NCBI GenBank assembly: GCA_036265245.1
Contig: DATAPK010000624.1
Coordinates: 1 to 33,188 of the forward strand
Origin: Tepidisphaeraceae bacterium
Lineage (GTDB): Bacteria > Planctomycetota > Phycisphaerae > Tepidisphaerales > Tepidisphaeraceae
Direction of reading: 5' to 3'
DNA: 33,188 nt
In this document: positions 2,160 to 29,681 of the stretch, piece by piece
Layout of the letters: every line of letters begins with the position of its first letter
How positions within the stretch are numbered: the first letter of the stretch is position 1
Position numbers and translations under genes: made by a program
The notes under the pieces: model-generated
What the model saw: the letters and a program-made list of their open reading frames with translations, nothing else
Told to the model about the DNA's origin: nothing
The model's database searches: none

Positions 2160-2179
2160 GCTTTGTAAGTTTGTGGGAA

Positions 2180-2197
2180 CCGCGAGCAAGCTCGCGG
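2180..2197 (+). terminator. GC-rich hairpin just after the PilZ stop (possible terminator, no T-tract)
   Basis: ccgcgagc-aa-gctcgcgg gives a 7-8 bp stem starting 21 nt after the TGA at 2157-2159. No U-run follows, so intrinsic-terminator status is uncertain. Confidence 0.3.
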
Positions 2198-2402
2198 CTA
2201 CACGAAGAGCAATTGAGAAGCCGCCGGTATGTGGGATCAATTTGTTTCGATCCCTGTGCCGGCGGTTTCTATTTGCGCGGAGGAGTGGGTGGGGATTGCG
2301 ACGGGCGCGTGATCGCTGCGGCAAGGCGGGGAAGGCAAACTGCAAAAGTTGGTCCACACCTCACGCATCGCAGTGCGCACGCAGCGAATCCTCACAATGT
2401 CA

Positions 2403-2967
2403 TTGGTTTGAAGCTTCAGCGGCGAGAGGCAGGGACCGTGAATCCAGCGGAAATTCGGTGTTGCGCGATTTTTTGGACGGTGTGCGCTTCGAAGCGGCGC
2501 AGGTGCGGAATGAAGCGGAACGCGCCCGCATAGCATCGCAGACGCGCATTGCGCTGCGGGCGCGTTGCGATGCGCTGTGTCGGGGGTGCGAAGCGCTCCG
2601 CATCAGGTGGCCAGCGCGGGGGACATTCACTTGAGCGCTGCGCACGCAACGCGCTCCCCTGCGGGCGCAATCGGGAAGCCTGCGGCACGAATCCGATTCC
2701 CTCTGCCGCGCGCCCGATTCAAAGCGTCCCGCATCGGCATTGCGTGCCAGTCTTCCGGCATCGAATGCGATGGTGCGCGATTGGAATCCGAGTTGCTCGG
2801 CTTCCAAGCCGATGCCCCGAACATTGAAGCGGGCGCGCCCGGCATCCAAGGCCCGTCGCTCGGCAGTGATGGCGACTGCTTCGGCATTGAATCTGAATGT
2901 CCGGGAATCGAAGCGGGGATGCGCGGGGCGGCGTGAAGGTGGGCGGGTTTCAAATCTTTTGGCCGGT
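2403..2967. repeat. GC-rich degenerate tandem array with 21-nt periodicity (array L), non-coding
   Basis: Ten consecutive 21-nt units read directly. 2716 gattcaaagcgtcccgcatcg, 2737 gcattgcgtgccagtcttccg, 2758 gcatcgaatgcgatggtgcgc, 2779 gattggaatccgagttgctcg, 2800 gcttccaagccgatgccccga. 2821 acattgaagcgggcgcgcccg, 2842 gcatccaaggcccgtcgctcg, 2863 gcagtgatggcgactgcttcg, 2884 gcattgaatctgaatgtccgg, 2905 gaatcgaagcggggatgcgcg. Further 21-nt-spaced pairs and triplets occur upstream: 2491/2512 gaagcgg, 2550/2571 tgcgctg, 2592/2613/2634 agcgc. Seven overlapping ORFs in different frames and strands cover it, typical of a stop-poor repeat rather than a gene. Confidence 0.7.
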
Positions 2968-3027
2968 GGGGGTTGGTGGGGCGGGGGTGAGGTTGAGGGC
3001 GTATGGGCCAAACTTTGGGCGTTAGAC

Positions 3028-5517
3028 ATGGGCGAGTATACTAGTGCATCTATGACGGAATCCGAAGCTATCGCGCTAGCCCTAGACGGCCAGGGTGTCC
3101 TCTTTTTGGGTTCAGGCTTCAGCCTTGGAGCGAAGACGGCGAAGCGGGAGGACGGACACGATGATATTCTGTCGGCGCCTGGATTTGCACGTTATCTCGG
3201 AAAGGCGGCAGGTATAGGCGAAGATGCGGGGCTAGAGGACGCATCTGATGAATTTGAACGGCTACGGGGTCCGGAGCAGCTTGTTGCGACGATAAAGCAA
3301 CACTTCATTGCAGCTGAAGTTGCTGCGTTTCACCGTACGATTTTATCGATACCTTGGAAGCGGATTTATACTACAAACTACGACAACGTAGCTGAGTTGG
3401 CTTCCGAGGACGAAAAGAAGGCGCTTAAGCCTTGTGGCGCTCGGGACGATTTCAACTCGTTACGAGGCGGGCCTACGCTCTCAATTCACCTGAACGGTTA
3501 TGCCCCGACGCTCCAGACGAGCGATCTGCGACGCGACTTCAAGTTAACAGAAGGTAGTTATGCGGCGGCGACGATCACGGATACGCCCGGAGTTGCATAT
3601 TTTCGTCAAGATATCCGCATGGCGGATGTCGTGATTTTTTTGGGCTACGGAATGTCTGACTTAGATATCAAGCGACTTCTAGCGGAGCATCCAGCCAGCA
3701 TTGCGAAGACTCTTTTCTTTGTCGGTAACAATCCGACTGCCGAATGCGATCGACGCGTTCGGCGTTACGGGACGCCGATCCACAGCACTGCGGAGGAATT
3801 CGCATCGGCCGTTTCAACGCAGAAAACGACCCATGTGCGATCGGCAAGTGCTGATCGGCTGCGTTACCTTGCCGAGTACGTTGCCAGCGGACCTCCTGCT
3901 ACAATTTCCGACTCCGATGTGATCAACCTGTTATTATGGGGAAAGCACACGACGGACCAGATTGCTGCGTCTATGGTCGGGGGAGTGCGTTATTATCAGG
4001 AAAGACCGGAGCTAAATAAGATTCTTGACTCGATTAGTGCCGGCAAACGCATGGTGGTACTTCACTCTCGCCTCGGTAATGGTAAGACGTTGCTAATCGA
4101 GGGTCTAAAGGTTCGCCTCAGGGAAATCGGCTATCGAGTGCTCCAAGCACGGGATGCCGATCCAAGTATTCAAAGGGAACTGGAAGCCGTTGCGCGTTCC
4201 GGAAAAAAAGTCGCGCTATTTTTCGAGCGGTATTCGACGTGGCTGAGCGAAATCGAGCTGTTTTGGAGAAATTGCGATCCCAGTTCGCTCGTTGTGGCAA
4301 CAGATCGCTCACACGCTCATGACTTTTTCTCGAACGAGCTTGAGCACTTTTGCGGAGAAGATTCAATTGTTGAATTCGCCTGCGATCGTATGCGCGACAA
4401 TGAAATTAGGTGGATAGTCAGCTTTCTCGATCAATATGGGCTCTGGGGGGAACTTGCTGGCGCAAAAACCTATGTGAAAGTGAAACACGTCGAGACAATG
4501 TGCCTCGGTCAATGGCATGGGGTGTTGTTGGAAATAATGAAATCGCCGGACATCGCCACGAGAATATCAAAGATTACAAGCCGCTTGCTCACAATTCGGC
4601 GAGATCAGGGCCCGATCTACGCAATCTTGATCCTCGCGGTGCTTGGTGAGCCTGCAACATATGACGTACTAACAGATTTGTATGACACAAGCACTATTAC
4701 CCGACGTAGCGTTGAAGCAGATCCTGCAATGTCGGAGTTATTCGAAGTTGACAGCTATGAGTGTCGTGTGCGTTCGGCTGTCGTGGCAAACTATATTCTT
4801 GCAGCCACTGACGACGGGGAATCGATTATTCAGACGCTTGTTCATATGGCAGAGCGATTCCATCGGCTTTCCGGTGTACGCCCGCTCTACAAGAAGCTAT
4901 CGATACAGCTATTACGCGTTAGCGTGGTTGCTCCGTTGTTTCCTGAAAAGCAGCCTAAGTTGAGCATATTGGATTATTATGAAAGATTGCGTGCCGCTAT
5001 TCCTTTCCAAAGAGAACCTCAATTTTGGCTGCAATATGCGATCGCAGCATTAGTATGTAAAGACTTAGAGCGCTCAAAGACGTATTTCGAAACAGCATAT
5101 TCGATTGGGGAAAGCATTCCAAATTACGACACGTTTAAGATAGATAATCATTACGTGCGTTATCTCATGGCAAAGGCGCAAGAAGTTGATAGTGTTGACG
5201 TGTTCTGGCCAATGTTCCTTGAGAGCTCTCGCATTATCGATCGTCAGATGCGTAAAGAGCGAGGCGATTTTCCGTTTAAGGTCGCGCGTGATCTACCTCT
5301 ACCCGTCAACCGATTCAAAACAGTTCTGAAGCCTCCACAAAAACGGACGATCATTGCCTTCGCCCGGCGCGTTCATGACCAAATAAAGGCGCTTCCAGGC
5401 TACCGGCAATCCAACAAATGGGTTCAGCATTGTAAGCGTTCTATGGAGGAAGTCATTGTGGTTTTGAGTGCAGACAACATCGAGCCAGAGAGCGACACAC
5501 CAAGTCTTGGTGAGTAA
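3028..5517 (+). CDS. SIR2_2-like domain + P-loop STAND-like NTPase + helical/TPR-like C-terminal region (Avs-like candidate defence protein), ~829 aa
   Basis: The track ORF 2740-5517 begins at a TTG inside the repeat array. The first ATGs are 3028 (MGEYTSAS) and 3052 (MTESEA). SIR2_2 hallmarks: GVLFLGSGFS, RIYTTNYD (3361-3384), IHLNGY with the candidate catalytic His codon at 3487-3489, and FLGYGMSDLDI. Walker A is LHSRLGNGKTLL (GNGKT at 4076-4090), with a Walker-B-like KVALFFE. The C-terminal ~430 aa is helical with TPR-like stretches (FWLQYAIAALVCKDLERSKTYFETAYSI). The gene is visibly more AT-rich than its flanks. Confidence 0.8.
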   Translation: MGEYTSASMTESEAIALALDGQGVLFLGSGFSLGAKTAKREDGHDDILSAPGFARYLGKAAGIGEDAGLEDASDEFERLRGPEQLVATIKQHFIAAEVAAFHRTILSIPWKRIYTTNYDNVAELASEDEKKALKPCGARDDFNSLRGGPTLSIHLNGYAPTLQTSDLRRDFKLTEGSYAAATITDTPGVAYFRQDIRMADVVIFLGYGMSDLDIKRLLAEHPASIAKTLFFVGNNPTAECDRRVRRYGTPIHSTAEEFASAVSTQKTTHVRSASADRLRYLAEYVASGPPATISDSDVINLLLWGKHTTDQIAASMVGGVRYYQERPELNKILDSISAGKRMVVLHSRLGNGKTLLIEGLKVRLREIGYRVLQARDADPSIQRELEAVARSGKKVALFFERYSTWLSEIELFWRNCDPSSLVVATDRSHAHDFFSNELEHFCGEDSIVEFACDRMRDNEIRWIVSFLDQYGLWGELAGAKTYVKVKHVETMCLGQWHGVLLEIMKSPDIATRISKITSRLLTIRRDQGPIYAILILAVLGEPATYDVLTDLYDTSTITRRSVEADPAMSELFEVDSYECRVRSAVVANYILAATDDGESIIQTLVHMAERFHRLSGVRPLYKKLSIQLLRVSVVAPLFPEKQPKLSILDYYERLRAAIPFQREPQFWLQYAIAALVCKDLERSKTYFETAYSIGESIPNYDTFKIDNHYVRYLMAKAQEVDSVDVFWPMFLESSRIIDRQMRKERGDFPFKVARDLPLPVNRFKTVLKPPQKRTIIAFARRVHDQIKALPGYRQSNKWVQHCKRSMEEVIVVLSADNIEPESDTPSLGE

Positions 5518-5694: not shown

Positions 5695-6381
5695 TTACGA
5701 GCGTGGGCGTCGGCGGAGCAGGGAGGCGGCGAGCGCGATCGCGGCGAGGGAGGAGGGTTCTGGGACGGCCGGTGTAAGGGAGATGATGTTGTAGCGATGG
5801 GCGATGCCGGGCGGGTCGTTGTTCAATGCGCCAATCACGTTATTGTTCACCACGGTTTGCAGATCGTAGCCAACGCCGGGCACGAGGTTGAAGTTGGTTG
5901 AACCGGAGCCGGCGCCGTCCACGCGGGTTCCATCGAAAATCCAGAAACTGTTGCCCGAATTGACGCCGCCGCTTTCGATGACCGTGTTCGTCCATGCCAG
6001 CGTATACGTCTTGGGAGCATCGACCGAAAAGAGAAAATGCAGGCTCACTTGCGCTTCGGCGCCCTGAAATGCCGTGTTTTGATCCGCCCCAAAGGCTGCT
6101 TCCTCGGCGGACAGGAGGAGTTCATCGGTGCTGGGGTTGAAGTGGATATTGCCGACGGCTTCGGTGAGGCCGCCGTCGAGGGTGAGAGTAATGGATCGCT
6201 GGGTGTCGTTCAGATCGCCGATGGTTCCCTCGGTGAAGGTGGTGGCTCGCACGTCATTGATCACGGCTGTCGTGCCGGTGTCGATAATCGTCGCCCGCGA
6301 TGTCGCAGGCCAAACGCTTAAGACGCACACAAAGGCAATCGCGCAGAACCACCGCACACGTCCCATTTGCCCATTCAACAT
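5695..6381 (-). CDS. PEP-CTERM sorting-domain secreted protein
   Basis: 228-aa ORF with ATG at 6381 and an N-terminal signal sequence (RWFCAIAFVCVLSVWPATSRA). The C-terminus VPEPSSLAAIALAASLLRRRPRS is a PEP motif, a hydrophobic helix and an Arg-rich tail. Confidence 0.85.
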   Translation of the reverse strand: MLNGQMGRVRWFCAIAFVCVLSVWPATSRATIIDTGTTAVINDVRATTFTEGTIGDLNDTQRSITLTLDGGLTEAVGNIHFNPSTDELLLSAEEAAFGADQNTAFQGAEAQVSLHFLFSVDAPKTYTLAWTNTVIESGGVNSGNSFWIFDGTRVDGAGSGSTNFNLVPGVGYDLQTVVNNNVIGALNNDPPGIAHRYNIISLTPAVPEPSSLAAIALAASLLRRRPRS

Positions 6382-6842: not shown

Positions 6843-8513
6843 ATGATTCGTACGGTTCCCTTTTTCGTCGCGGTTTGCGTTGTCGCGATGTTCGCGCGAT
6901 CGAGTATAGCCGAGGCCGTCCTCGAGACGCGTGACACGGAGTCGCTTGCGATCGAATCGAGGTTGATCATCGAGGCGACGATCGATTGCGATTGGACCGA
7001 GGGTACTCGAGGTGGTGCCAAGGCAGACGTCGCGCGTGTGGTGGTCGATCGCCTCATCGCGGGGCCTCGCGACACGATCGGACCGTGGGACGGTGCCGAC
7101 ACTGTGAAGCGAGATTACTCCGCGTTCAAGCTCGCCGCCGGCGATCATCTCGATGTCGCCGGCTTAGGCCTTTATGCGATTTCGCCCGACCTTGCAGGTG
7201 GCAAACGGCGAGGGCTGGCTAAAGGCGATCGGCTCGTTCTCTTTCTGATGGACAAGCGTGATCGAGCCGATCTCTTCGTCGCCTGGCAGGAGACGTCGGC
7301 AAACTGGGCGGTACCGTTTAATGCGTTACGGCTGATCGTCGGCACGGACACGTACGCGTTCGTGCAGCATTGGGGCGGTCGATCCAACGAGTTCCGAATG
7401 TCGAGCACGATTGAAACGGCGACCCCGGTTCTATTCCCGGAGGTTAAGCCGCTACCGTTGGACGAACTCGATCGCCGGATTCTCAAGGCCATCACCGACG
7501 AACCCGCACTGCAGCAGACGATCGACAGTGCGACGCGCGCCGATGCGCCTGCTCTGCTGGAGATATGCCGATCGCGCAAGGACGCCGCGCCGGGCGAAGT
7601 CGTCGCAGCCAAGCATTGGCCCTTGTGGGCCGGTGCAAAGATCCAACAGGTCGCCGATGCGCAGATGCTCGTTGACTACTTCGTCTCCGAGGAGCGGATG
7701 CGTGAGGACAACTTCCATCCCCAATATGGATTTGGTGGATCGGTGGATACCCACGAACTCATCCTGCGGAAGTTGGAAGATGGCGCGATTCCGGCAGCGC
7801 GGCTGCGAGATGCATTCGACGTTTTCAGTGATGGCCGCAACTATCGTACGCCGCTAAAGCAGTCGTCCATTAAGGGTTCGCCGCCTCCGCACGGTGGCCG
7901 GCTCGCGACGCGGCTTGCGAAGGTCGCGTTGCGGGTCAGCGATCCACGGCAACTGTGGTTCGCTTACGGCGCAATCCGCGATTGCATGCCCTTTGCCGAC
8001 GAGCGATCGTTTCCGGCATTGGACGACGACTTGGCGGCCGCTGCGGACGTTCTCGTCGAGGGCTGGCCGAAGCTGAACAACGACCAGCGTTGCGAAGCGG
8101 CGATCACGCTTGCCTTCATCGACGTGAAGCAAGTCCAACGCGTGATGCCCTCCGGCGGTCTATTCATCTCGCTCCTCAAGCCTCGGTCGTATGGCAAGGT
8201 ACTCGATCAAAAGGGACAACTGCACCTGGAGTACAAGTACAATAACGTCCTGAAGAAGTCGGATCCGCCGATGACGCTCTCGCTTGTCCTGCGTTCGGCT
8301 GACGGGAAGCGTGAGTTCGAACGGGACTTCGAGAACGAGCACGCCCAACTCCGCGAGAACGGTGGACGCGGGAGTGGCGGCCAGATGTCCTTGGACATCG
8401 CCTTGCCCGACGGCGTGACGGCCGGCACGTACCATGCCTTTATTCGCGCACGCAGCGAAGGCAAGCTGCTCGCCGACGGCATCGGCTGCGACGTCGTGGT
8501 CCCTGAGAATTAG
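6843..8513 (+). CDS. Hypothetical secreted protein, 556 aa, no recognisable domain
   Basis: Long ORF with ATG at 6843 and signal peptide MIRTVPFFVAVCVVAMFARSSIAEA. Codon bias resembles the neighbours. The antisense ORFs over it are low-complexity shadows. Confidence 0.7.
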   Translation: MIRTVPFFVAVCVVAMFARSSIAEAVLETRDTESLAIESRLIIEATIDCDWTEGTRGGAKADVARVVVDRLIAGPRDTIGPWDGADTVKRDYSAFKLAAGDHLDVAGLGLYAISPDLAGGKRRGLAKGDRLVLFLMDKRDRADLFVAWQETSANWAVPFNALRLIVGTDTYAFVQHWGGRSNEFRMSSTIETATPVLFPEVKPLPLDELDRRILKAITDEPALQQTIDSATRADAPALLEICRSRKDAAPGEVVAAKHWPLWAGAKIQQVADAQMLVDYFVSEERMREDNFHPQYGFGGSVDTHELILRKLEDGAIPAARLRDAFDVFSDGRNYRTPLKQSSIKGSPPPHGGRLATRLAKVALRVSDPRQLWFAYGAIRDCMPFADERSFPALDDDLAAAADVLVEGWPKLNNDQRCEAAITLAFIDVKQVQRVMPSGGLFISLLKPRSYGKVLDQKGQLHLEYKYNNVLKKSDPPMTLSLVLRSADGKREFERDFENEHAQLRENGGRGSGGQMSLDIALPDGVTAGTYHAFIRARSEGKLLADGIGCDVVVPEN

Positions 8514-13214: not shown

Positions 13215-13324
13215 AATGACCAATGACCAAATCCGAATGACCAATGAATGACCAATACCCAATCTCCAATTGGTCATTGGGATTTGGGATTTCATTGGTC
13301 ATTCGGGCTTGGTCATTGGTCATT
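13215..13324. repeat. Palindromic intergenic repeat, family A copy 1 (AATGACCAA / TTGGTCATT arms)
   Basis: Left arm: aatgaccaatgaccaaatccgaatgaccaatgaatgaccaatacccaatctccaa. Right arm: ttggtcattgggatttgggatttcattggtcattcgggcttggtcattggtcatt. Together they form a ~110-nt imperfect hairpin centred near 13269/13270. It lies between the rhaM stop (13334) and the fused ABC gene start (13162). Confidence 0.8.
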
Positions 13325-15121: not shown

Positions 15122-15919
15122 TCAGCGTAATTCGAGCATACCGAATTTGTCCATGTCATCGAAGGTCTGATTTTCGCCGCCCATGGACCAGATGAATTTG
15201 TAGGCACTGGTGCCGCAGCCGCAGTGGATGGACCAGGGGGGCGAGAGGGCGCATTGTTCATTGGCGATCCAGAGATGCCGGGAGTTTTGCGGGGGCCCGA
15301 GGAAATGGGAGACGACGTTTTCGCCGAGGTTGAAATAGAAATAGATTTCGCTGCGGCGAAGGTGCGTGTGGGGCGGCATGGTGTTCCAGACGCTGCCTTC
15401 GTATAGCTCGGTGAAACCCATGACAAGCTGGCAACTTTTGATGCCTTTGGCGTGGATCATCTGATAGATCGTGCGCTTGTTGGCGGTGGCGGGGCTGCCC
15501 AGGTGCACCGCGTTGCATTCGCTTTTACGGACCAGGGTTGTGGGATAAGCGTGATGGGCGGGGCAACTGTTGATGTAGAACTTGGCGAGTTCTTTCTTGC
15601 CTTTGCTGGCGAAGGTGACGTCGCGGCTGCCCATGGCGATGTAGAGGCAGGCGAGGTTTTCGAGATCGTATTTTTTGCCATCGACGGTGATCACGCCGGG
15701 GCCGCCGACGTTGATGATGCCCATCTCGCGGCGTTCGAGGAAGAAGTCGGCACCGGTCTGCTTGAAGTTTTCGAGCTTGACGGGGGACGCTGGGGAGACG
15801 CCGGCGACGGCGAGGCGATCGAGGTCGGTAAACGTCCAATTGAGCTTGTTGGCGTCGAAGATTTTGTCGATCAGGAATGTCGCCCGCAGGTCTTCGGTGG
15901 TCATTGACTGGACGTCCAT
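15122..15919 (-). CDS. kduI: 5-dehydro-4-deoxy-D-glucuronate isomerase (4-deoxy-L-threo-5-hexosulose-uronate ketol-isomerase)
   Basis: Strong by-eye match to E. coli KduI along the whole length. Matching stretches: MDV start, FFLERREMGIINVGG, FYINSCPAHHAYPT, CQLVMGFTEL, WNTMPPHTH, RSEIYFYFN, FIWSMGGENQTFDDMD. ATG 15919 matches the E. coli N-terminus. The track start at 15967 is a TTG with a GGAG upstream and cannot be excluded. Confidence 0.9.
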   Translation of the reverse strand: MDVQSMTTEDLRATFLIDKIFDANKLNWTFTDLDRLAVAGVSPASPVKLENFKQTGADFFLERREMGIINVGGPGVITVDGKKYDLENLACLYIAMGSRDVTFASKGKKELAKFYINSCPAHHAYPTTLVRKSECNAVHLGSPATANKRTIYQMIHAKGIKSCQLVMGFTELYEGSVWNTMPPHTHLRRSEIYFYFNLGENVVSHFLGPPQNSRHLWIANEQCALSPPWSIHCGCGTSAYKFIWSMGGENQTFDDMDKFGMLELR

Positions 15920-16026
15920 CGGCCTGGGGGAAGAAAGCACCGGCGGTTGTATTACTGGCTTTGGCAAGGGAAACTCCGCTTGAATTAAAGTGGCGACATC
16001 ATAGAAAAGTCGGCGGAGAAATACAC

Positions 16027-17973
16027 ATGCTGAGAAGAGTTTGTCGAAGGGTGGTGATCGGGATAGGGATTGCCTGTGGTTCGGTGGGGTGCCAGGCGCA
16101 GGATGCGGCTCGGATTCCGGCGTCTCATCCGGCGTCGGCGGCGCTCAAGAAGCTGTTTTCGACGCCAGCCGCCACCGATTTTCGAGCCACTTCAGTTCAT
16201 CGCGACGATTATCTAACTCTTGTGGCGGCGGATATCGACTTCTTCAAGCAGTATCAGAATGAGGCCGGCGCGATCATCGATCCGGTTCGTCATGAGGAGA
16301 TACAGTATTCGACGCCGGCCTTTGCGCTGGCGGCGGCGACGCTGGCAGCGGAGAGAAATCGCGAAGATTTGCTGGACCCCGCGGTGCGGGCGATGACGTT
16401 TGCGACGCACGCCCTGGCTAATCACACCAGCGCGAACGGGCACGCGGATTTTTATATCCCGCTGCTGATGCACACCCGGCGGATTCTCAAGGATCATGTC
16501 GCCAAAGAGACGTTGGCCAAATGGGATGCGGATTTTGGGCAGATCGTGCCGGAAACACATTATCACGACGCCGCCGCCCAGATGAACTGGAATATCGTGA
16601 ACGTTGACGGCGAATCGCAGCGGCGAACGGAGGGATTGGTGGTGGCGGATCAATTGCCCGCCCAGGAGAAGTACATTGAGCGATCGTTGGCGAAACAACA
16701 ATCACATTTTACCCGGTTTGGGATGTATGACGATCCGAATGGGCCGCTGGCATATGACGCGTTTCCGCGATTGTGGCTGGAAGACCTGATGGCGGGCGGA
16801 CAGTTTCAGGGGGCGCATGCGCAGGACATTCGCGATTTTCTTTTGGCGGGCGGGTTGTCTTCTTTGTTGATGCTTTCGCCGACGGGGGAATGGGCGGAGG
16901 GTGGGCGATCGGCGCAACATCAGTGGAATGAAGCGCAGATGGTGGTGATTTTTGAGATTAATGCGCAAAAGTGGCATGCAATGGGATGCGAGCAAATCGC
17001 GGGAGCGATGAAACGGAGTGCGCATCTGGCGTTCGGATCGATGCTTCGATGGCAGCGGCCCAGCGGGGAACTTTGGATTATCAAAAATCATGCCGAGCCT
17101 CAGACTCGGCTGGGATTCGAGGACTATTCGTCGCATTCGCAATACAACCTCCTGCCGATGGCGATGCTTTGCATGGCGTTTGGGTATGCAAACGAATCGA
17201 TTCACGAGCAGCCAGCGCCGTGCGAAGTTGGCGGATTTGTTTTTGATGTTCGCGAGACGTTCCACAAGGTTTTTGCAAATGCGGGCGGGATGTATGTCGA
17301 GATCGATACTGCGGCCGATGCGCACTACAACGCGACGGGATTGCAGCGGGTGCATCGCAAGGATGTGCCGCTGTCGCCACTGTCGGATAGCACGGCGGCC
17401 GAACGAGCTTATGGGCCGAATGGGGATGCGAACCGAGCGGCGATGTCGCCGGGGATTCAGTGGATGAGCGAAGGCAAGGACACAAATGGGCGGTGGATGT
17501 CGTTGGGGGATTTTGTCAATGCAACGCAGCCCAAGCCAGAGCGCGGCGAGGGTGTAGTCGCTTCGACGGATCTGGCGATTCAGACCCAGGCGCCGCGCCG
17601 AGTTTCATTTAATTTAACTTACCATTTGCTCGGGGCGGGGGACGTGGCAGAGTCTTATTCGATCTCGCCGGATCAGGTGGAGGGCAAGAGCGAATTGCGC
17701 GGGAATAGGACAGGCAAGACGCGGGTTTTATTTCCTGTTCTTGTGAATGATGGATCGCAGGATCTTCCAGTGAAAGTGTCGGCGGGACGAATTACGGAGA
17801 AGCGGGATGATTCGGTGTTGAATTGGCAAATCATCTCGCCGCTTGATATCTCGCTCTCTGTTCAGGGGCCTCGTATTCCATGTCACAATGGGTATATGCA
17901 GGCGGCGATAGGGGATTTGCCGGATAAAACGGGCAGGTTTACCTGGCGGCTGACGCTGGAGCGTGCGAAGTAA
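16027..17973 (+). CDS. Hypothetical secreted protein, ~648 aa (candidate carbohydrate-active enzyme by context only)
   Basis: ATG at 16027 with GGAG 8 nt upstream. Signal-like N-terminus MLRRVCRRVVIGIGIACGSVGCQA. Divergent from kduI. No motif I can name. The track start at 15877 overlaps the kduI 5' end. Confidence 0.6.
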   Translation: MLRRVCRRVVIGIGIACGSVGCQAQDAARIPASHPASAALKKLFSTPAATDFRATSVHRDDYLTLVAADIDFFKQYQNEAGAIIDPVRHEEIQYSTPAFALAAATLAAERNREDLLDPAVRAMTFATHALANHTSANGHADFYIPLLMHTRRILKDHVAKETLAKWDADFGQIVPETHYHDAAAQMNWNIVNVDGESQRRTEGLVVADQLPAQEKYIERSLAKQQSHFTRFGMYDDPNGPLAYDAFPRLWLEDLMAGGQFQGAHAQDIRDFLLAGGLSSLLMLSPTGEWAEGGRSAQHQWNEAQMVVIFEINAQKWHAMGCEQIAGAMKRSAHLAFGSMLRWQRPSGELWIIKNHAEPQTRLGFEDYSSHSQYNLLPMAMLCMAFGYANESIHEQPAPCEVGGFVFDVRETFHKVFANAGGMYVEIDTAADAHYNATGLQRVHRKDVPLSPLSDSTAAERAYGPNGDANRAAMSPGIQWMSEGKDTNGRWMSLGDFVNATQPKPERGEGVVASTDLAIQTQAPRRVSFNLTYHLLGAGDVAESYSISPDQVEGKSELRGNRTGKTRVLFPVLVNDGSQDLPVKVSAGRITEKRDDSVLNWQIISPLDISLSVQGPRIPCHNGYMQAAIGDLPDKTGRFTWRLTLERAK

Positions 17974-20122: not shown

Positions 20123-20223
20123 CTTTATAAGGGGGCGCTGTTTGAGATAGAGCGCGGTGTTGGGAATCAATAATTGGCCTGACAGCGCATTTTCCTTCAG
20201 CCCGGCTTACAATATTGCCGCTC

Positions 20224-21279
20224 ATGACTTCGGTTCATCTCGATCATATTTTCAAGCGATTCGGCGCGACGGTGGCCCTGAATGACATCAACCTGAAAAT
20301 CAACGCGGGCGAATTGTTTTTCCTGCTCGGGCCGAGTGGATGTGGGAAGAGCACGCTGCTGCGATTGATCGCGGGCTTGCACGAGCCCAGCGAGGGGCGA
20401 ATTTATTTTAACGATCGCGATGTGACGAATCTGCCGACCGAGCAGCGCAATGCGGTGATGTGTTTTCAGAGTTATGCGCTTTGGCCGCACATGAGCGTGC
20501 GGGAGAACGTGCGGTTTGGGTTGGACGTGCGCGCTCTGGAGCGCACGCAGCGGGAAAAACGGGTGGACGAGGTTCTTGCGCTGGTGCAGATGGAAAAGTT
20601 TGCGGATCGAAAGCCCAACCAGCTTTCGGGTGGGCAGCAGCAGCGCGTTGCCCTGGCACGGGCGCTGGCGGTGAATCCGGATTGTTTGTTGCTGGATGAG
20701 CCGCTGTCGAATCTGGATGCGCAGCTTCGGCTGGAGATGCGAAGCGAGATTCGCCGCATCTGCAAGACCGGGGGATTCACCACGATCTACGTGACGCACG
20801 ATCAGAAAGAGGCGCTGAGCGTGGCGGATCGAATCGCGGTGCTGAAAGACGGCAAGCTGGCGCAGATGGGCACGCCGGGCGAACTTTATCATCGTCCGAA
20901 TAGCGCATTTGTCGCGTCGTTCATGGGGCAGACGAATCTTTTGAGCGGCAAGGTGATCGAGCGGCACGCGACCACGGTGCGCGTGGAGACGGCGGTTGGT
21001 AAATTCGTCGCCAGCAGCAATGTCGGCGTGCCGGATCGAGTGACCATCAGCATCCGCCCGGAGCAAATGCAGATCGTTCGCGGCGACATGATTCATCACG
21101 GACGCAATCGACTGACCGGCCAGCCGACAGAGATGACCTTTCTGGGCGAGGCGTCGGAGCATGTGCTGAAGGTGAAGGATCAGACATTGAAAGTGATTAG
21201 CGCGCCACCGCTATTTGATGTGCCGGCGGAATTGACCGTGGAGTTTGATCCGGAGGACGTGGTAGTGTTGGCGGAGTAA
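20224..21279 (+). CDS. ABC transporter ATP-binding protein (PotA/FbpC-type importer ATPase)
   Basis: Walker A GPSGCGKST, signature LSGGQQQRVALARAL, Walker B LLLDEPLS, H-loop YVTHD, plus a C-terminal regulatory/TOBE-like extension. The first ATG is 20224 (MTSVHLDHIFKRFG). The track start at 20215 is a TTG. Confidence 0.9.
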   Translation: MTSVHLDHIFKRFGATVALNDINLKINAGELFFLLGPSGCGKSTLLRLIAGLHEPSEGRIYFNDRDVTNLPTEQRNAVMCFQSYALWPHMSVRENVRFGLDVRALERTQREKRVDEVLALVQMEKFADRKPNQLSGGQQQRVALARALAVNPDCLLLDEPLSNLDAQLRLEMRSEIRRICKTGGFTTIYVTHDQKEALSVADRIAVLKDGKLAQMGTPGELYHRPNSAFVASFMGQTNLLSGKVIERHATTVRVETAVGKFVASSNVGVPDRVTISIRPEQMQIVRGDMIHHGRNRLTGQPTEMTFLGEASEHVLKVKDQTLKVISAPPLFDVPAELTVEFDPEDVVVLAE

Positions 21280-22840: not shown

Positions 22841-22963
22841 AAATCCGAATGACCAAACCAGAATGACCAATGAATGACCAAATCCGAATGACGAAAATGA
22901 AATTTGTTGAGTCATTGGGGCTTGGGCATTCATTGGTCACTCGGATTTGGGAATTCGGGTTTC
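22841..22963. repeat. Palindromic intergenic repeat, family A copy 2
   Basis: aaatccgaatgaccaaaccagaatgaccaatgaatgaccaaatccgaatgac pairs with gtcattggggcttgggcattcattggtcactcggatttgggaattcgggtttc across an AT-rich loop. It lies between the mmsA stop (22832) and the MBL gene start (22980). Confidence 0.8.
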
Positions 22964-28250: not shown

Positions 28251-28565
28251 GCGCGGATCGGGCGCGCTGCGCATCGAATCGCACTCGTGCCGCAGAGGAA
28301 CGGATTGCGCCCCGCGTGGTGGGTGTTCCGTGTACAGCGCGTGAGACATCGTTCCAAGTGCTTGTCACGCCGTGCAGAGCGCTCCTGACCCCCGGCGCAG
28401 CGAATGGGAGCGCGCCCGCAGCGCACTGCGCGCCTGCGATTCAAAGCGGACGCGTTCCGCTTCACTCCGCATGCGCGCCGCTTCGGTCCGCACACAATAA
28501 AGGAGCCAACGTGCGCAGCGTGCGGAGGAGCGCGGCGAATGCACAGCGACGAGTGCTTTGAGGGT
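28251..28565. repeat. GC-rich degenerate array with 21-nt periodicity (array R), related to array L
   Basis: Exact 21-nt spacing holds across the array. 28272 catcgaat, 28293 cagagg, 28335 cagcgc, 28377 gagcgc, 28398 cagcga, 28419 cagcgc, 28440 ttcaaag, 28461 ttcactc, 28482 ttcggtc. By manual ungapped alignment, 28377-28487 matches the reverse complement of 2488-2598 at 90 of 111 positions. Confidence 0.7.
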
Positions 28566-28606: not shown

Positions 28607-28966
28607 TTATTTTTCTGTGTCTTTGGGTCGAAACGCCAGCCGGGCCTGATCGACGTCGGGATAAATATCGACGAGCTTGGCGATTCGGGCGAGGGTGAGG
28701 GCTTTGATGACGAAGCTGTGGGGTGGAGCGGCGATTTTGACGTCGCCGCCGTGCTTGGCGAGCTTTTTGTGCAGGCGGACGAGCACGCCGATGCCGTAGC
28801 TGGAGATGTAATCGAGGTGCGAGCAATCAACGATGATCTTGCTCACGCCGGCGTCGACGAGTGACTCAAGCTGCTCGACGAACGGCTTGGCGGTTTCGCC
28901 ATTCAATCCGCCGTCGGCGCTGAGGATCATGACGGCCTTGTCGATCTCGTGAAAAAAGAATTCCAT
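28607..28966 (-). CDS. STAS-domain protein (anti-sigma-factor antagonist, SpoIIAA/RsbV-like)
   Basis: 119 aa. Typical STAS layout: LSADGGLNGETAKPFVEQLESLVDAGVSKIIVDCSHLDYISSYGIGVLVRLHKKL. No partner kinase or phosphatase lies in the window. Confidence 0.82.
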   Translation of the reverse strand: MEFFFHEIDKAVMILSADGGLNGETAKPFVEQLESLVDAGVSKIIVDCSHLDYISSYGIGVLVRLHKKLAKHGGDVKIAAPPHSFVIKALTLARIAKLVDIYPDVDQARLAFRPKDTEK

Positions 28967-29091: not shown

Positions 29092-29370
29092 TCACGCTGC
29101 GATCGGCTTGATGCGTTTGATGCTGCCGCGTTTGACCTGGGCGAGTTCCCAGTTCTTCTGGAGGTTCAGCCAGAACTGCGGGCTCGCGCCAAGGGCGAGG
29201 GAGAGCTTGACGGCCATTTCGGCGCTGATGCCGCGTTTGCCTCGGCAGATTTCGTTGATGGTTTTGCTGAGAACGCCGATGTGCTGCGCCAGCGCGGATT
29301 GTGTGATATCGCGTTCTTCCAGTTCGTCAGCCAGCACTTTCCCGGGATGGATGGCAATTGTGTGTGTCAT
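29092..29370 (-). CDS. higA: HigA-family antitoxin (XRE-type HTH)
   Basis: MTHTIAIHPGKVLADELEERDITQSALAQHIGVLSKTINEICRGKRGISAEMAVKLSLALGASPQFWLNLQ is the classic HigA/VapI pattern. ATG 29370 has GGAG 6 nt upstream. ATG 29382 and the TTG at 29388 are alternative starts. Confidence 0.85.
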   Translation of the reverse strand: MTHTIAIHPGKVLADELEERDITQSALAQHIGVLSKTINEICRGKRGISAEMAVKLSLALGASPQFWLNLQKNWELAQVKRGSIKRIKPIAA

Positions 29371-29384
29371 TGGAAACTCCATGG

Positions 29385-29681
29385 TCAATGATAATCAACG
29401 ATCTCGACATCTTCCGCGCCCGAATTTAGCCATCTAAAGCAGATGCGATACCGATCATTCAGGCGAATGCTATGCTGATCGGCGCGATTACCCTTCAACT
29501 TTTCCAAGCGATTACCGGGCAAAGTTGACAAATCATTCAACGAATCCGTTGCGTGTAGGCGAGCCAGCTTGACCTGTGCTTTGCCGTGCAGCAATGCAGG
29601 TAATAATTTTATCGCGGCTTTTGTCGGGCGACCGTAGTTGATGTCCTCCGTCGCCTGATTCCGAAAGCTGCGGATCGCCAT
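29385..29681 (-). CDS. higB: HigB-like toxin (RelE/ParE superfamily, plasmid maintenance system killer type)
   Basis: 98 aa with ATG at 29681. Patterns: IRSFRNQATEDI, LLPALLHGKAQVKLARLHATDSLNDLSTLPGNRLEKLKGNRADQHSIRLNDRYRICF, VEIVDYH. Toxin-first order immediately upstream of higA is typical of HigBA. Confidence 0.85.
   Translation of the reverse strand: MAIRSFRNQATEDINYGRPTKAAIKLLPALLHGKAQVKLARLHATDSLNDLSTLPGNRLEKLKGNRADQHSIRLNDRYRICFRWLNSGAEDVEIVDYH

Follow-up and report, generated by a model that had tools for sequence, protein, structure and literature searches.

The locus at positions 3028-5517 of the window (throughout, the whole stretch of 33,188 nt that was analyzed, i.e. positions 1 to 33,188 of contig DATAPK010000624.1 of a Tepidisphaeraceae bacterium; this stretch belongs to a JGI metagenome contig of 103 kb) raises the question of what kind of protein is formed by a SIR2 domain fused to a STAND-like NTPase and a long helical region, an arrangement recognized in an original prediction made from the letters of the sequence alone. 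Our analysis indicates that the gene (3052..5517, + strand; 821 aa plus the stop codon) very probably encodes an Avs5 (AVAST type 5) protein, i.e. a single-polypeptide NLR-like anti-phage sensor. The proposed architecture, a single-gene combination of SIR2, STAND NTPase and helical sensor of the SIR2-fused Avs type, is borne out by the detection of a full-length homolog that has been characterized, EfAvs5. As had been suspected, the architecture class is not new and matches the known Avs5 family: the gene is a divergent new member of a known and mechanistically characterized family and not a new kind of system.

Relationship to EfAvs5

A phmmer search against the sequences of the Protein Data Bank (PDB) returned one strong full-length match, 9jap_A (E=8e-68; query residues 72-712 aligned to residues 115-758 of the chain). 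Entry 9JAP represents a filament of the Escherichia fergusonii AVAST type 5 protein (EfAvs5), solved by cryo-EM (Wang et al., Nat Commun 2025, PMC11897194). The database search yielded 168 homologs, nearly all of which are 800-845 aa long and exhibit the same Pfam content, and a profile of 48 homologs matched EfAvs5 with E=9.5e-166 (profile positions 10-775 of 809, chain positions 50-827 of 869), in an alignment that takes in all three modules, from SIR2 through STAND to the C-terminal sensor. Among the ~5.8 billion sequences searched, the closest full-length homolog exhibits 39% identity, and one fragment of 190 aa reaches 64%.

The AlphaFold2 (AF2) model, built on the alignment of 48 homologs (mean pLDDT 85.9, pTM 0.83), was compared with the PDB by Foldseek, and this structural route, which the original prediction had recommended, again led to EfAvs5 as the best match (9jap_A, E=1.2e-37, 844 aligned columns). 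Further matches comprise 9nc9, entitled "Helical assembly of AVAST5 filament" (E about 1e-16), human SAMD9 (E about 4e-12), as well as DSR2, ThsA and KomC (E 1e-7 to 1e-8), the last three being consistent with sequence matches restricted to the SIR2 domain. The global TM-score between the model and 9jap is low (0.35), possibly due to different conformations of the model and of the filament structure; for PaAvs5, Muralidharan et al. (Mol Cell 2026, PMC12931631) report that the AlphaFold3 prediction is a compact "closed" state. The 48-homolog profile does not detect 9nc9 by sequence, which suggests that the window protein is nearer to EfAvs5, a protein placed in clade 3 of Avs5 (PMC12931631). 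The similarity to SAMD9 and SAMD9L extends over the SIR2-like and STAND-like core (TM-score normalized to the query 0.40-0.42) and also appears in the published comparison of PaAvs5 (PMC12931631); these proteins are however eukaryotic and much larger, with extra domains, only ~10-11% identity and a different effector chemistry.

The gene itself is real and intact, with 821 uninterrupted codons; it aligns end-to-end with its homologs at 96-99% coverage and retains all invariant residues of the family. It occupies most of a long + strand open reading frame (ORF) at 2740-5517. An in-frame ATG at 3028 would extend the product to 829 aa; nonetheless, the ATG at 3052 appears to be the more likely start, because both the N-termini of homologs (MEVKEAI..., MEIQEAI...), which align to the Met encoded at 3052, and the database gene call begin at MTESEAI. 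The latter call is the protein database entry P0001 (821 aa), an identical protein predicted for the same contig with its start at 3052; it has been called on two JGI metagenome contigs, so that the same sequence is present in two samples.

Domains and functional residues

The window protein (821 aa) and EfAvs5 (849 aa) are similar in size and share the order of modules: SIR2, a FISNA-like linker, a STAND module composed of a nucleotide-binding domain (NBD), a helical domain and a winged-helix domain (WHD), and a helical C-terminal sensor. In the comparison of individual residues the chain index of 9jap was taken as the native EfAvs5 numbering + 20 (24 out of 24 published residues that were checked land on the right amino acid), and EfAvs5 residues are mapped onto the window protein in its 829-aa numbering. 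All motifs quoted in the original prediction were recovered in the expected frame, at the positions given there or a few nucleotides away.

The SIR2 domain, a predicted NADase effector by homology, extends over 3052..3837 (+; approximately residues 1-262 of the 821-aa protein) and was identified by the Pfam family SIR2_2 (PF13289) well above the threshold (37.4 bits against a cut-off of 24.5, E=3e-9; residues 112-227 in the 829-aa numbering), as anticipated; the anticipated STAND models were matched only below threshold. The SIR2 motifs, all on the + strand, are GVLFLGSGFS (3094-3123, with GSGFS at 3109-3123), RIYTTNYD (3361-3384, exactly as reported before, with TTNYD at 3370-3384 and its Asn codon at 3376-3378), IHLNGY (3484-3501, with HLNG at 3487-3498, the Asn codon at 3493-3495 and the His codon CAC at 3487-3489, the latter again as reported before) and FLGYGMSDLDI (3637-3669). 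A Trp residue, YTTNYD, the His and NG are invariant across the 48 aligned homologs. The NAD-contacting positions are identical to those of EfAvs5, with T140/N141/Y142 corresponding to T116/N117/Y118, N180 of the NG motif to N156 and Y202 to Y178.

The SIR2 domain is connected to the NTPase by a linker at 3838..4041 (+), which in the EfAvs5 alignment is equivalent to the FISNA-like region (EfAvs5 residues 300-366); its boundaries, taken from the AF2 secondary structure, are approximate, and it is the least conserved segment in the alignment of 48 homologs (majority frequency 0.37). The NBD (4042..4386, +) was delineated from the EfAvs5 alignment, with Pfam nSTAND matches below the cut-off. It includes the Walker A motif LGNGKT, correctly spotted before but misplaced at 4076-4090 (the actual position is 4072-4089, +, Lys codon 4084-4086), the Walker B motif VALFFE-R (4210-4230, +, with VALFFE at 4210-4227 and the Glu codon at 4225-4227) and the Arg finger of a T-D-R motif (4306-4308, +). 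K379/S380 of EfAvs5 correspond to K353/T354, D426 to E400 and R453, the Arg of the TTR motif, to R427. The helical and winged-helix subdomains, which complete the STAND module (nucleotide-binding and oligomerization domain, NOD), occupy 4387..4866 (+) according to the EfAvs5 alignment; in the AF2 model they are helical with short strands, and R537 of EfAvs5, a contact of the ATP phosphate, has a conserved counterpart in R512 (codon 4561-4563).

Two features would seem unusual in a sirtuin-NTPase fusion but are published traits of Avs5. At the position of the canonical sirtuin HG the window protein exhibits Asn (H-L-N-G), and NG in place of HG is reported for about half of Avs5 homologs; its Walker B motif (ALFFE-R) comprises a single acid followed by Arg, like IIFIE-R of PaAvs5-1, and hhhhE-R is described as an Avs5 hallmark (PMC12931631). 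Here the window protein (FFER) differs from EfAvs5 (FIDD). It shares NG, the single Glu followed by Arg and the Arg finger with PaAvs5-1, and the SIR2-STAND-repeat architecture with PaAvs5-1, PaAvs5-2, PaAvs5-3 and EcAvs5, which represent Avs5 clades 1-3 (PMC12931631). The substitutions N141A, K379A and D426A in EfAvs5 (PMC11897194), and N110A and N153A in PaAvs5-1 (PMC12931631), abolish defense; more generally, loss of defense in EfAvs5 or PaAvs5-1 is reported for mutations at the positions corresponding to N117, N156, Y178, K353, E400, R427 and R512. The residue equivalent to EfAvs5 N180 and PaAvs5 N153 is Asn156 of HLNG; the His encoded at 3487-3489, previously proposed as the target of a catalytic H-to-A mutation, is therefore the wrong residue, located two residues upstream of the canonical HG position. 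This His (His154, or H146 in the 821-aa numbering), two residues before NG, is invariant in 48 out of 48 homologs and in EfAvs5 (LHING); HxNG is a signature of this clade, for which the Avs5 literature examined (parts of PMC11897194 and PMC12931631) does not state the role of the His.

The C-terminal sensor is an all-helical domain of ~215 aa (4867..5514, +; residues ~606-821 in the 821-aa numbering), defined from the AF2 model and the profile alignment, with helices at 611-806 (pLDDT mostly 87-96) and the final 10 residues predicted to be disordered. Motifs common to the family are FWLQYAIA (5023-5046, +) and IDNHY (5140-5154, +), and W659, D698 and N699 are invariant among the 48 homologs. 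The original prediction described ~430 aa of helical sequence behind the P-loop; the helical character is confirmed, but ~160 aa of it still form part of the STAND module, as its helical and winged-helix subdomains, and only ~215 aa make up the sensor proper. The suggestion that this sensor might be a divergent or undescribed lineage is not supported. It aligns with the EfAvs5 sensor through position 827 of the 869-residue chain and shares with it the motifs FW.QYA, Y..TAYS and ID; in the family alignment it is as well conserved as the other domains (majority-residue frequency 0.49, compared with 0.46 for the NBD and 0.53 for SIR2); and the C-terminal 222 aa alone retrieved 623 clusters (50% identity, E<=1e-3), where among the 150 matches listed every full-length protein has ~760-840 aa and is matched at ~600-800, while shorter ones look like gene fragments. 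Thus, among the full-length matches listed, the sensor recurs only within the same ~810-aa architecture.

As far as can be judged from sequence, the window protein has every feature expected of Avs5: an N-terminal SIR2 domain with GSGFS, TTNYD, HLNG and the NAD-contacting positions of EfAvs5, a STAND NTPase whose Walker A, Walker B and Arg finger align to K379, D426 and R453, a C-terminal helical sensor homologous to that of EfAvs5, and a single gene that lacks an obligatory partner, both among the neighbors in the window and at three homolog loci.

Genomic context and origin

The gene is AT-rich in comparison with its surroundings, as had been noticed by eye: its GC content is 50.2% against 57.4% in the rest of the window, its GC content at third codon positions (GC3) is 0.51 against 0.63-0.82 in 19 other genes examined in the window, and 60-nt lines within the gene have a median GC of 0.50, those in the flanks one of 0.60. 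Thus the gene is an outlier in GC and GC3, while the distance in relative synonymous codon usage, the other half of the proposed composition check, did not discriminate because of gene-length noise. The best homolog at 39% identity is incompatible with a conserved gene of the lineage, considering that the searches returned, for the PGK encoded in this window, more than 100 relatives with 78-93% identity. All named ones among them belong to Tepidisphaeraceae, Phycisphaerae or Phycisphaerales, which places the host in the Planctomycetota. The outlier composition together with the distant best homolog, as against the close relatives of PGK, suggests that the gene was probably acquired horizontally; GC3 and the same comparison with PGK agree with its proposed accessory status, and the notion of an "islet" is supported by composition and sporadic distribution. 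Named homologs include KSB1, Anaerolineales, Acidobacteria and Bacteroidota. At three homolog loci the genes stand alone among unrelated neighbors, which at one locus are a PhdYeFM/PIN toxin-antitoxin pair and an HTH_17 gene. Additionally, a set of IMG/VR contigs (L085-L098, of the viral or prophage class, several from isolate genomes) encodes full-length relatives with 21-28% identity, and their location suggests that members of the Avs5 family travel on mobile elements.

The analysis of the 33-kb window revealed no integrase, transposase or other recognizable defense gene and no tRNA genes; nor is the gene bordered by direct repeats indicative of an integration site. The flanking genes encode MarR, YceI, PilZ, a protein weakly matching PEP-CTERM, an orphan protein of 556 aa and an ABC transporter, and the rest of the window carries genes of the usual chromosomal kind (ABC transporters, KduI, aldehyde dehydrogenase, PGK and a HigBA pair). 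The convergent downstream gene mentioned in the original prediction is indeed present on the minus strand (5695-6381); it encodes the 228-aa protein whose match to PEP-CTERM is weak and sub-threshold. The 556-aa protein (6843-8513, +) has no Pfam match and only one partial, non-syntenic homolog (65% identical across one third of the protein) in ~5.8 billion proteins, and no relatives in the genome or metagenome contigs searched. The GC3 of both genes is host-like (0.72-0.73). The interval from PilZ to the ABC operon may be variable as a whole. In the search for related loci with the periplasmic binding protein, those with up to 71% identity share only the ABC operon, an 87% match lies on a 1-kb contig of insufficient length for a comparison, and the closest relative of PGK (93%) is on a contig that ends before the gene region.

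The upstream intergenic region (2160..3051), the presumed site of the promoter, contains what had been described as a 0.55-kb repeat array. A very degenerate 21-nt periodicity is indeed present at ~2396-2940 (about 25 units with the weak consensus GCTCGGCATCGAAGCGGACGC), and autocorrelation detects it as the strongest lag-21 signal in the window (match 0.425, z=7.4 against shuffles); Tandem Repeats Finder, however, does not report an array and finds in the tract only a 31-nt two-copy match of period 16 (2544-2574). The GC content at the three codon positions is flat in all six frames of the tract (GC1=GC2=GC3=0.64), therefore a minus-strand ORF of 209 aa (2400-3029) is probably not a gene; Pfam returned nothing for this ORF or for a + strand ORF of 123 aa, and a 149-aa gene had been called in this region on the source contig. 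The left part of the tract (2480-2718, +) is a copy of a dispersed GC-rich repeat of ~240 nt, of which an inverted second copy lies 25.5 kb away (28257-28495, -; 73.6% identity, E=1e-37) and a third copy, 86% identical to the second, is found at 548-759 of L111, a contig from a close relative whose PGK is 93% identical. Rfam searches of the tract reported no family at the gathering threshold and only chance-level matches at E<=1, and RNAalifold found no supporting covariation in two or in three copies of the repeat.

Several other features of the window were recorded. Overlapping genes for a HigB-like toxin (PF05015, E=6e-13; 29092-29388, -) and an HTH_3 antitoxin (29385-29681, -) form a type II pair, adjoined by a STAS-domain gene (28607-28966, -); on L111 the HTH gene is present and no HigB gene was called. 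Two ORFs lack a significant Pfam family, one of 698 aa (15877-17973, +), which overlaps the 5' end of the KduI gene by ~90 nt, and one of 321 aa (20197-21162, -). Short tandem or dispersed units resembling GAATGACCAAT (inverse TCATTGG) occur at 13222-13270, 13292-13324 and 22847-22896, i.e. at or just past the ends of the ORFs of an ABC transporter (13222-13324) and the aldehyde dehydrogenase (22847-22896), and may represent another small repeat family.

Proposed mechanism, alternative readings and significance

By analogy with EfAvs5 and PaAvs5, the protein would rest as an autoinhibited monomer, with ATP held in the STAND module by the Walker A Lys, the Walker B Glu and the Arg finger. A phage-encoded protein, recognized early in infection by the C-terminal helical domain, would free the STAND and SIR2 domains for oligomerization, which in EfAvs5 leads to helical filaments (PMC11897194) and here could bring the SIR2 domains into an active dimeric arrangement; the SIR2 domains would then hydrolyze NAD+, yielding ADP-ribose and nicotinamide, and NAD+ depletion would halt phage replication. 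The trigger of EfAvs5 is reported to be T7 gp1.7 (PMC11897194), and that of PaAvs5, JADA of jumbo phages, to be specific to Pseudomonas phages (PMC12931631).

The Avs5 assignment is carried by the full-length homology, the order of domains, the conserved catalytic and nucleotide-binding residues, the single-gene organization and the foreign composition, but several observations count against it. The identity to EfAvs5 is only ~27%, and it is from the characterized homologs that we infer NADase activity, phage defense and trigger. The Pfam models nSTAND_NTPase5 (E=3e-5, residues 324-428 in the 829-aa numbering) and nSTAND3 (E=0.11) both remain under the cut-off; the same two models are matched by EfAvs5. 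PADLOC-DB 2.0.0 returned no Avs match for the window protein; this negative is however uninformative, because PADLOC-DB 2.0.0 also misses the 644-aa stretch of EfAvs5 used as a control (chain residues 115-758, reconstructed from the phmmer alignment), together with three homologs. A consensus scan, uncalibrated for Planctomycetota, found no + strand sigma-70-like promoter upstream of the gene; no terminator-like site was found downstream of it, and three + strand terminator-like matches fall inside the coding sequence. Finally, most residues that form the dimer and filament interfaces of EfAvs5 are replaced (R185 by T, H362 by S, K461 by L, K552 by Q, H622/K623 by G/E), including those of the WHD (K552 and H622/K623 map to the non-conserved positions 527 and 597/598), and the final 12 residues form an acidic tail (net charge -4) in place of the basic tail 844-849 reported to be essential for bundling of EfAvs5 filaments (PMC11897194).

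With interface and tail diverged in this way, the assembly geometry may differ from that of EfAvs5, and an Avs5 homolog that forms dimers, tetramers or single unbundled filaments, maybe in response to a different class of trigger, is unlikely but deserves serious consideration. The replaced contacts include mutation-tested ones, the family as a whole does not share a basic tail, and phage specificity is reported to differ among Avs5 clades (PMC12931631), which fits such a protein; on the other hand, interface residues commonly drift while geometry stays, the contacts D164, T262 and K241 (the last as R) have been kept, and 9nc9, an Avs5 of a more distant clade, is also filamentous according to its PDB title. 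Somewhat more speculatively, and with a low probability, the gene could represent an uncharacterized environmental sub-lineage of the EfAvs5 clade, perhaps with another assembly and perhaps sensing a protein of planctomycete phages, whose upstream tract and repeat could be a hotspot of recombination or insertion, or a regulatory element. It is quite improbable that the gene is an inactive relic, i.e. an Avs5 gene that arrived by horizontal transfer and has since lost its function or expression. The negative promoter scan, the degenerate repeat tract upstream and a composition not ameliorated toward that of the host would agree with it, but a frame intact over 821 codons with every invariant residue in place and the occurrence of the same sequence in two metagenomes do not, and the sigma-70 consensus scan lacks calibration for Planctomycetota. 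Even less probable is a role outside immunity, as a STAND regulator or a housekeeping sirtuin of the planctomycete, e.g. a signaling ATPase with an NAD-dependent deacylase domain. Such a role would suit the metabolic and transport genes adjoining the gene and the lack of other defense genes, integrases and transposases in 33 kb; it is contradicted by the NADase-type SIR2_2 domain without the canonical HG, the demonstrated anti-phage function of a full-length homolog (PMC11897194), the foreign GC3, the sporadic distribution with a best identity of 39% as opposed to 93% for PGK, and homologs scattered over many phyla, in unrelated neighborhoods and partly on viral contigs.

The least probable reading is a different SIR2 defense protein, similar to DSR1/DSR2 or ThsA or acting as the SIR2 partner of HerA, pAgo or Kongming. 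The models of Dsr2 and ThsA in PADLOC and NCBIfam do match weakly over the TTNYD region (E=1e-4 to 7e-4) and Foldseek reports DSR2, ThsA and KomC, but all these similarities are limited to SIR2 (query ~83-135; profile ~6-221 against KomC and ThsA), whereas the match to EfAvs5 covers all three modules with an E-value that excludes spurious homology of the NTPase and C-terminal parts. DSR1 and DSR2 resemble the window protein in being encoded by a single gene, with an N-terminal SIR2 NADase on a long helical sensor that couples sensing of a phage protein to NAD+ depletion (Foldseek E about 1e-8), but they lack a P-loop STAND NTPase, and the matches to the Dsr2 models are confined to ~30 residues around TTNYD (18.4 bits in PADLOC; 17.8 in NCBIfam against a cut-off of 1400). 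ThsA of Thoeris and KomC of Kongming have the same SIR2 fold with its catalytic motifs (profile E 1e-7 to 1e-21 across the first ~210 residues); they are however small-molecule-activated effectors of multi-gene systems, ThsA with a SLOG domain and KomC in a KomBC complex with dITP. The ThsA model matches residues 83-135 only, Pfam detects no SLOG domain in the window protein, and the flanking genes encode no TIR protein, HerA, pAgo (SPARSA) or KomA/B.

With the gene assigned to Avs5, our understanding of how such systems work is unchanged. The assignment does expose an annotation gap: the PADLOC 2.0.0 models miss this clade as well as the tested 644-aa stretch of EfAvs5, and the Pfam STAND models score the window protein below threshold, therefore such genes are annotated merely as "SIR2 family protein", the only name that NCBI gives to the homologs. 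The EfAvs5-type clade is widespread in environmental phyla. While EfAvs5 comes from an enterobacterial host, the gene described here lies on a planctomycete metagenome contig, and it thus extends Avs5, a characterized NLR-like NAD+-depleting sensor, to a Tepidisphaeraceae-like planctomycete, a member of a group whose phages and defense repertoire are poorly known.

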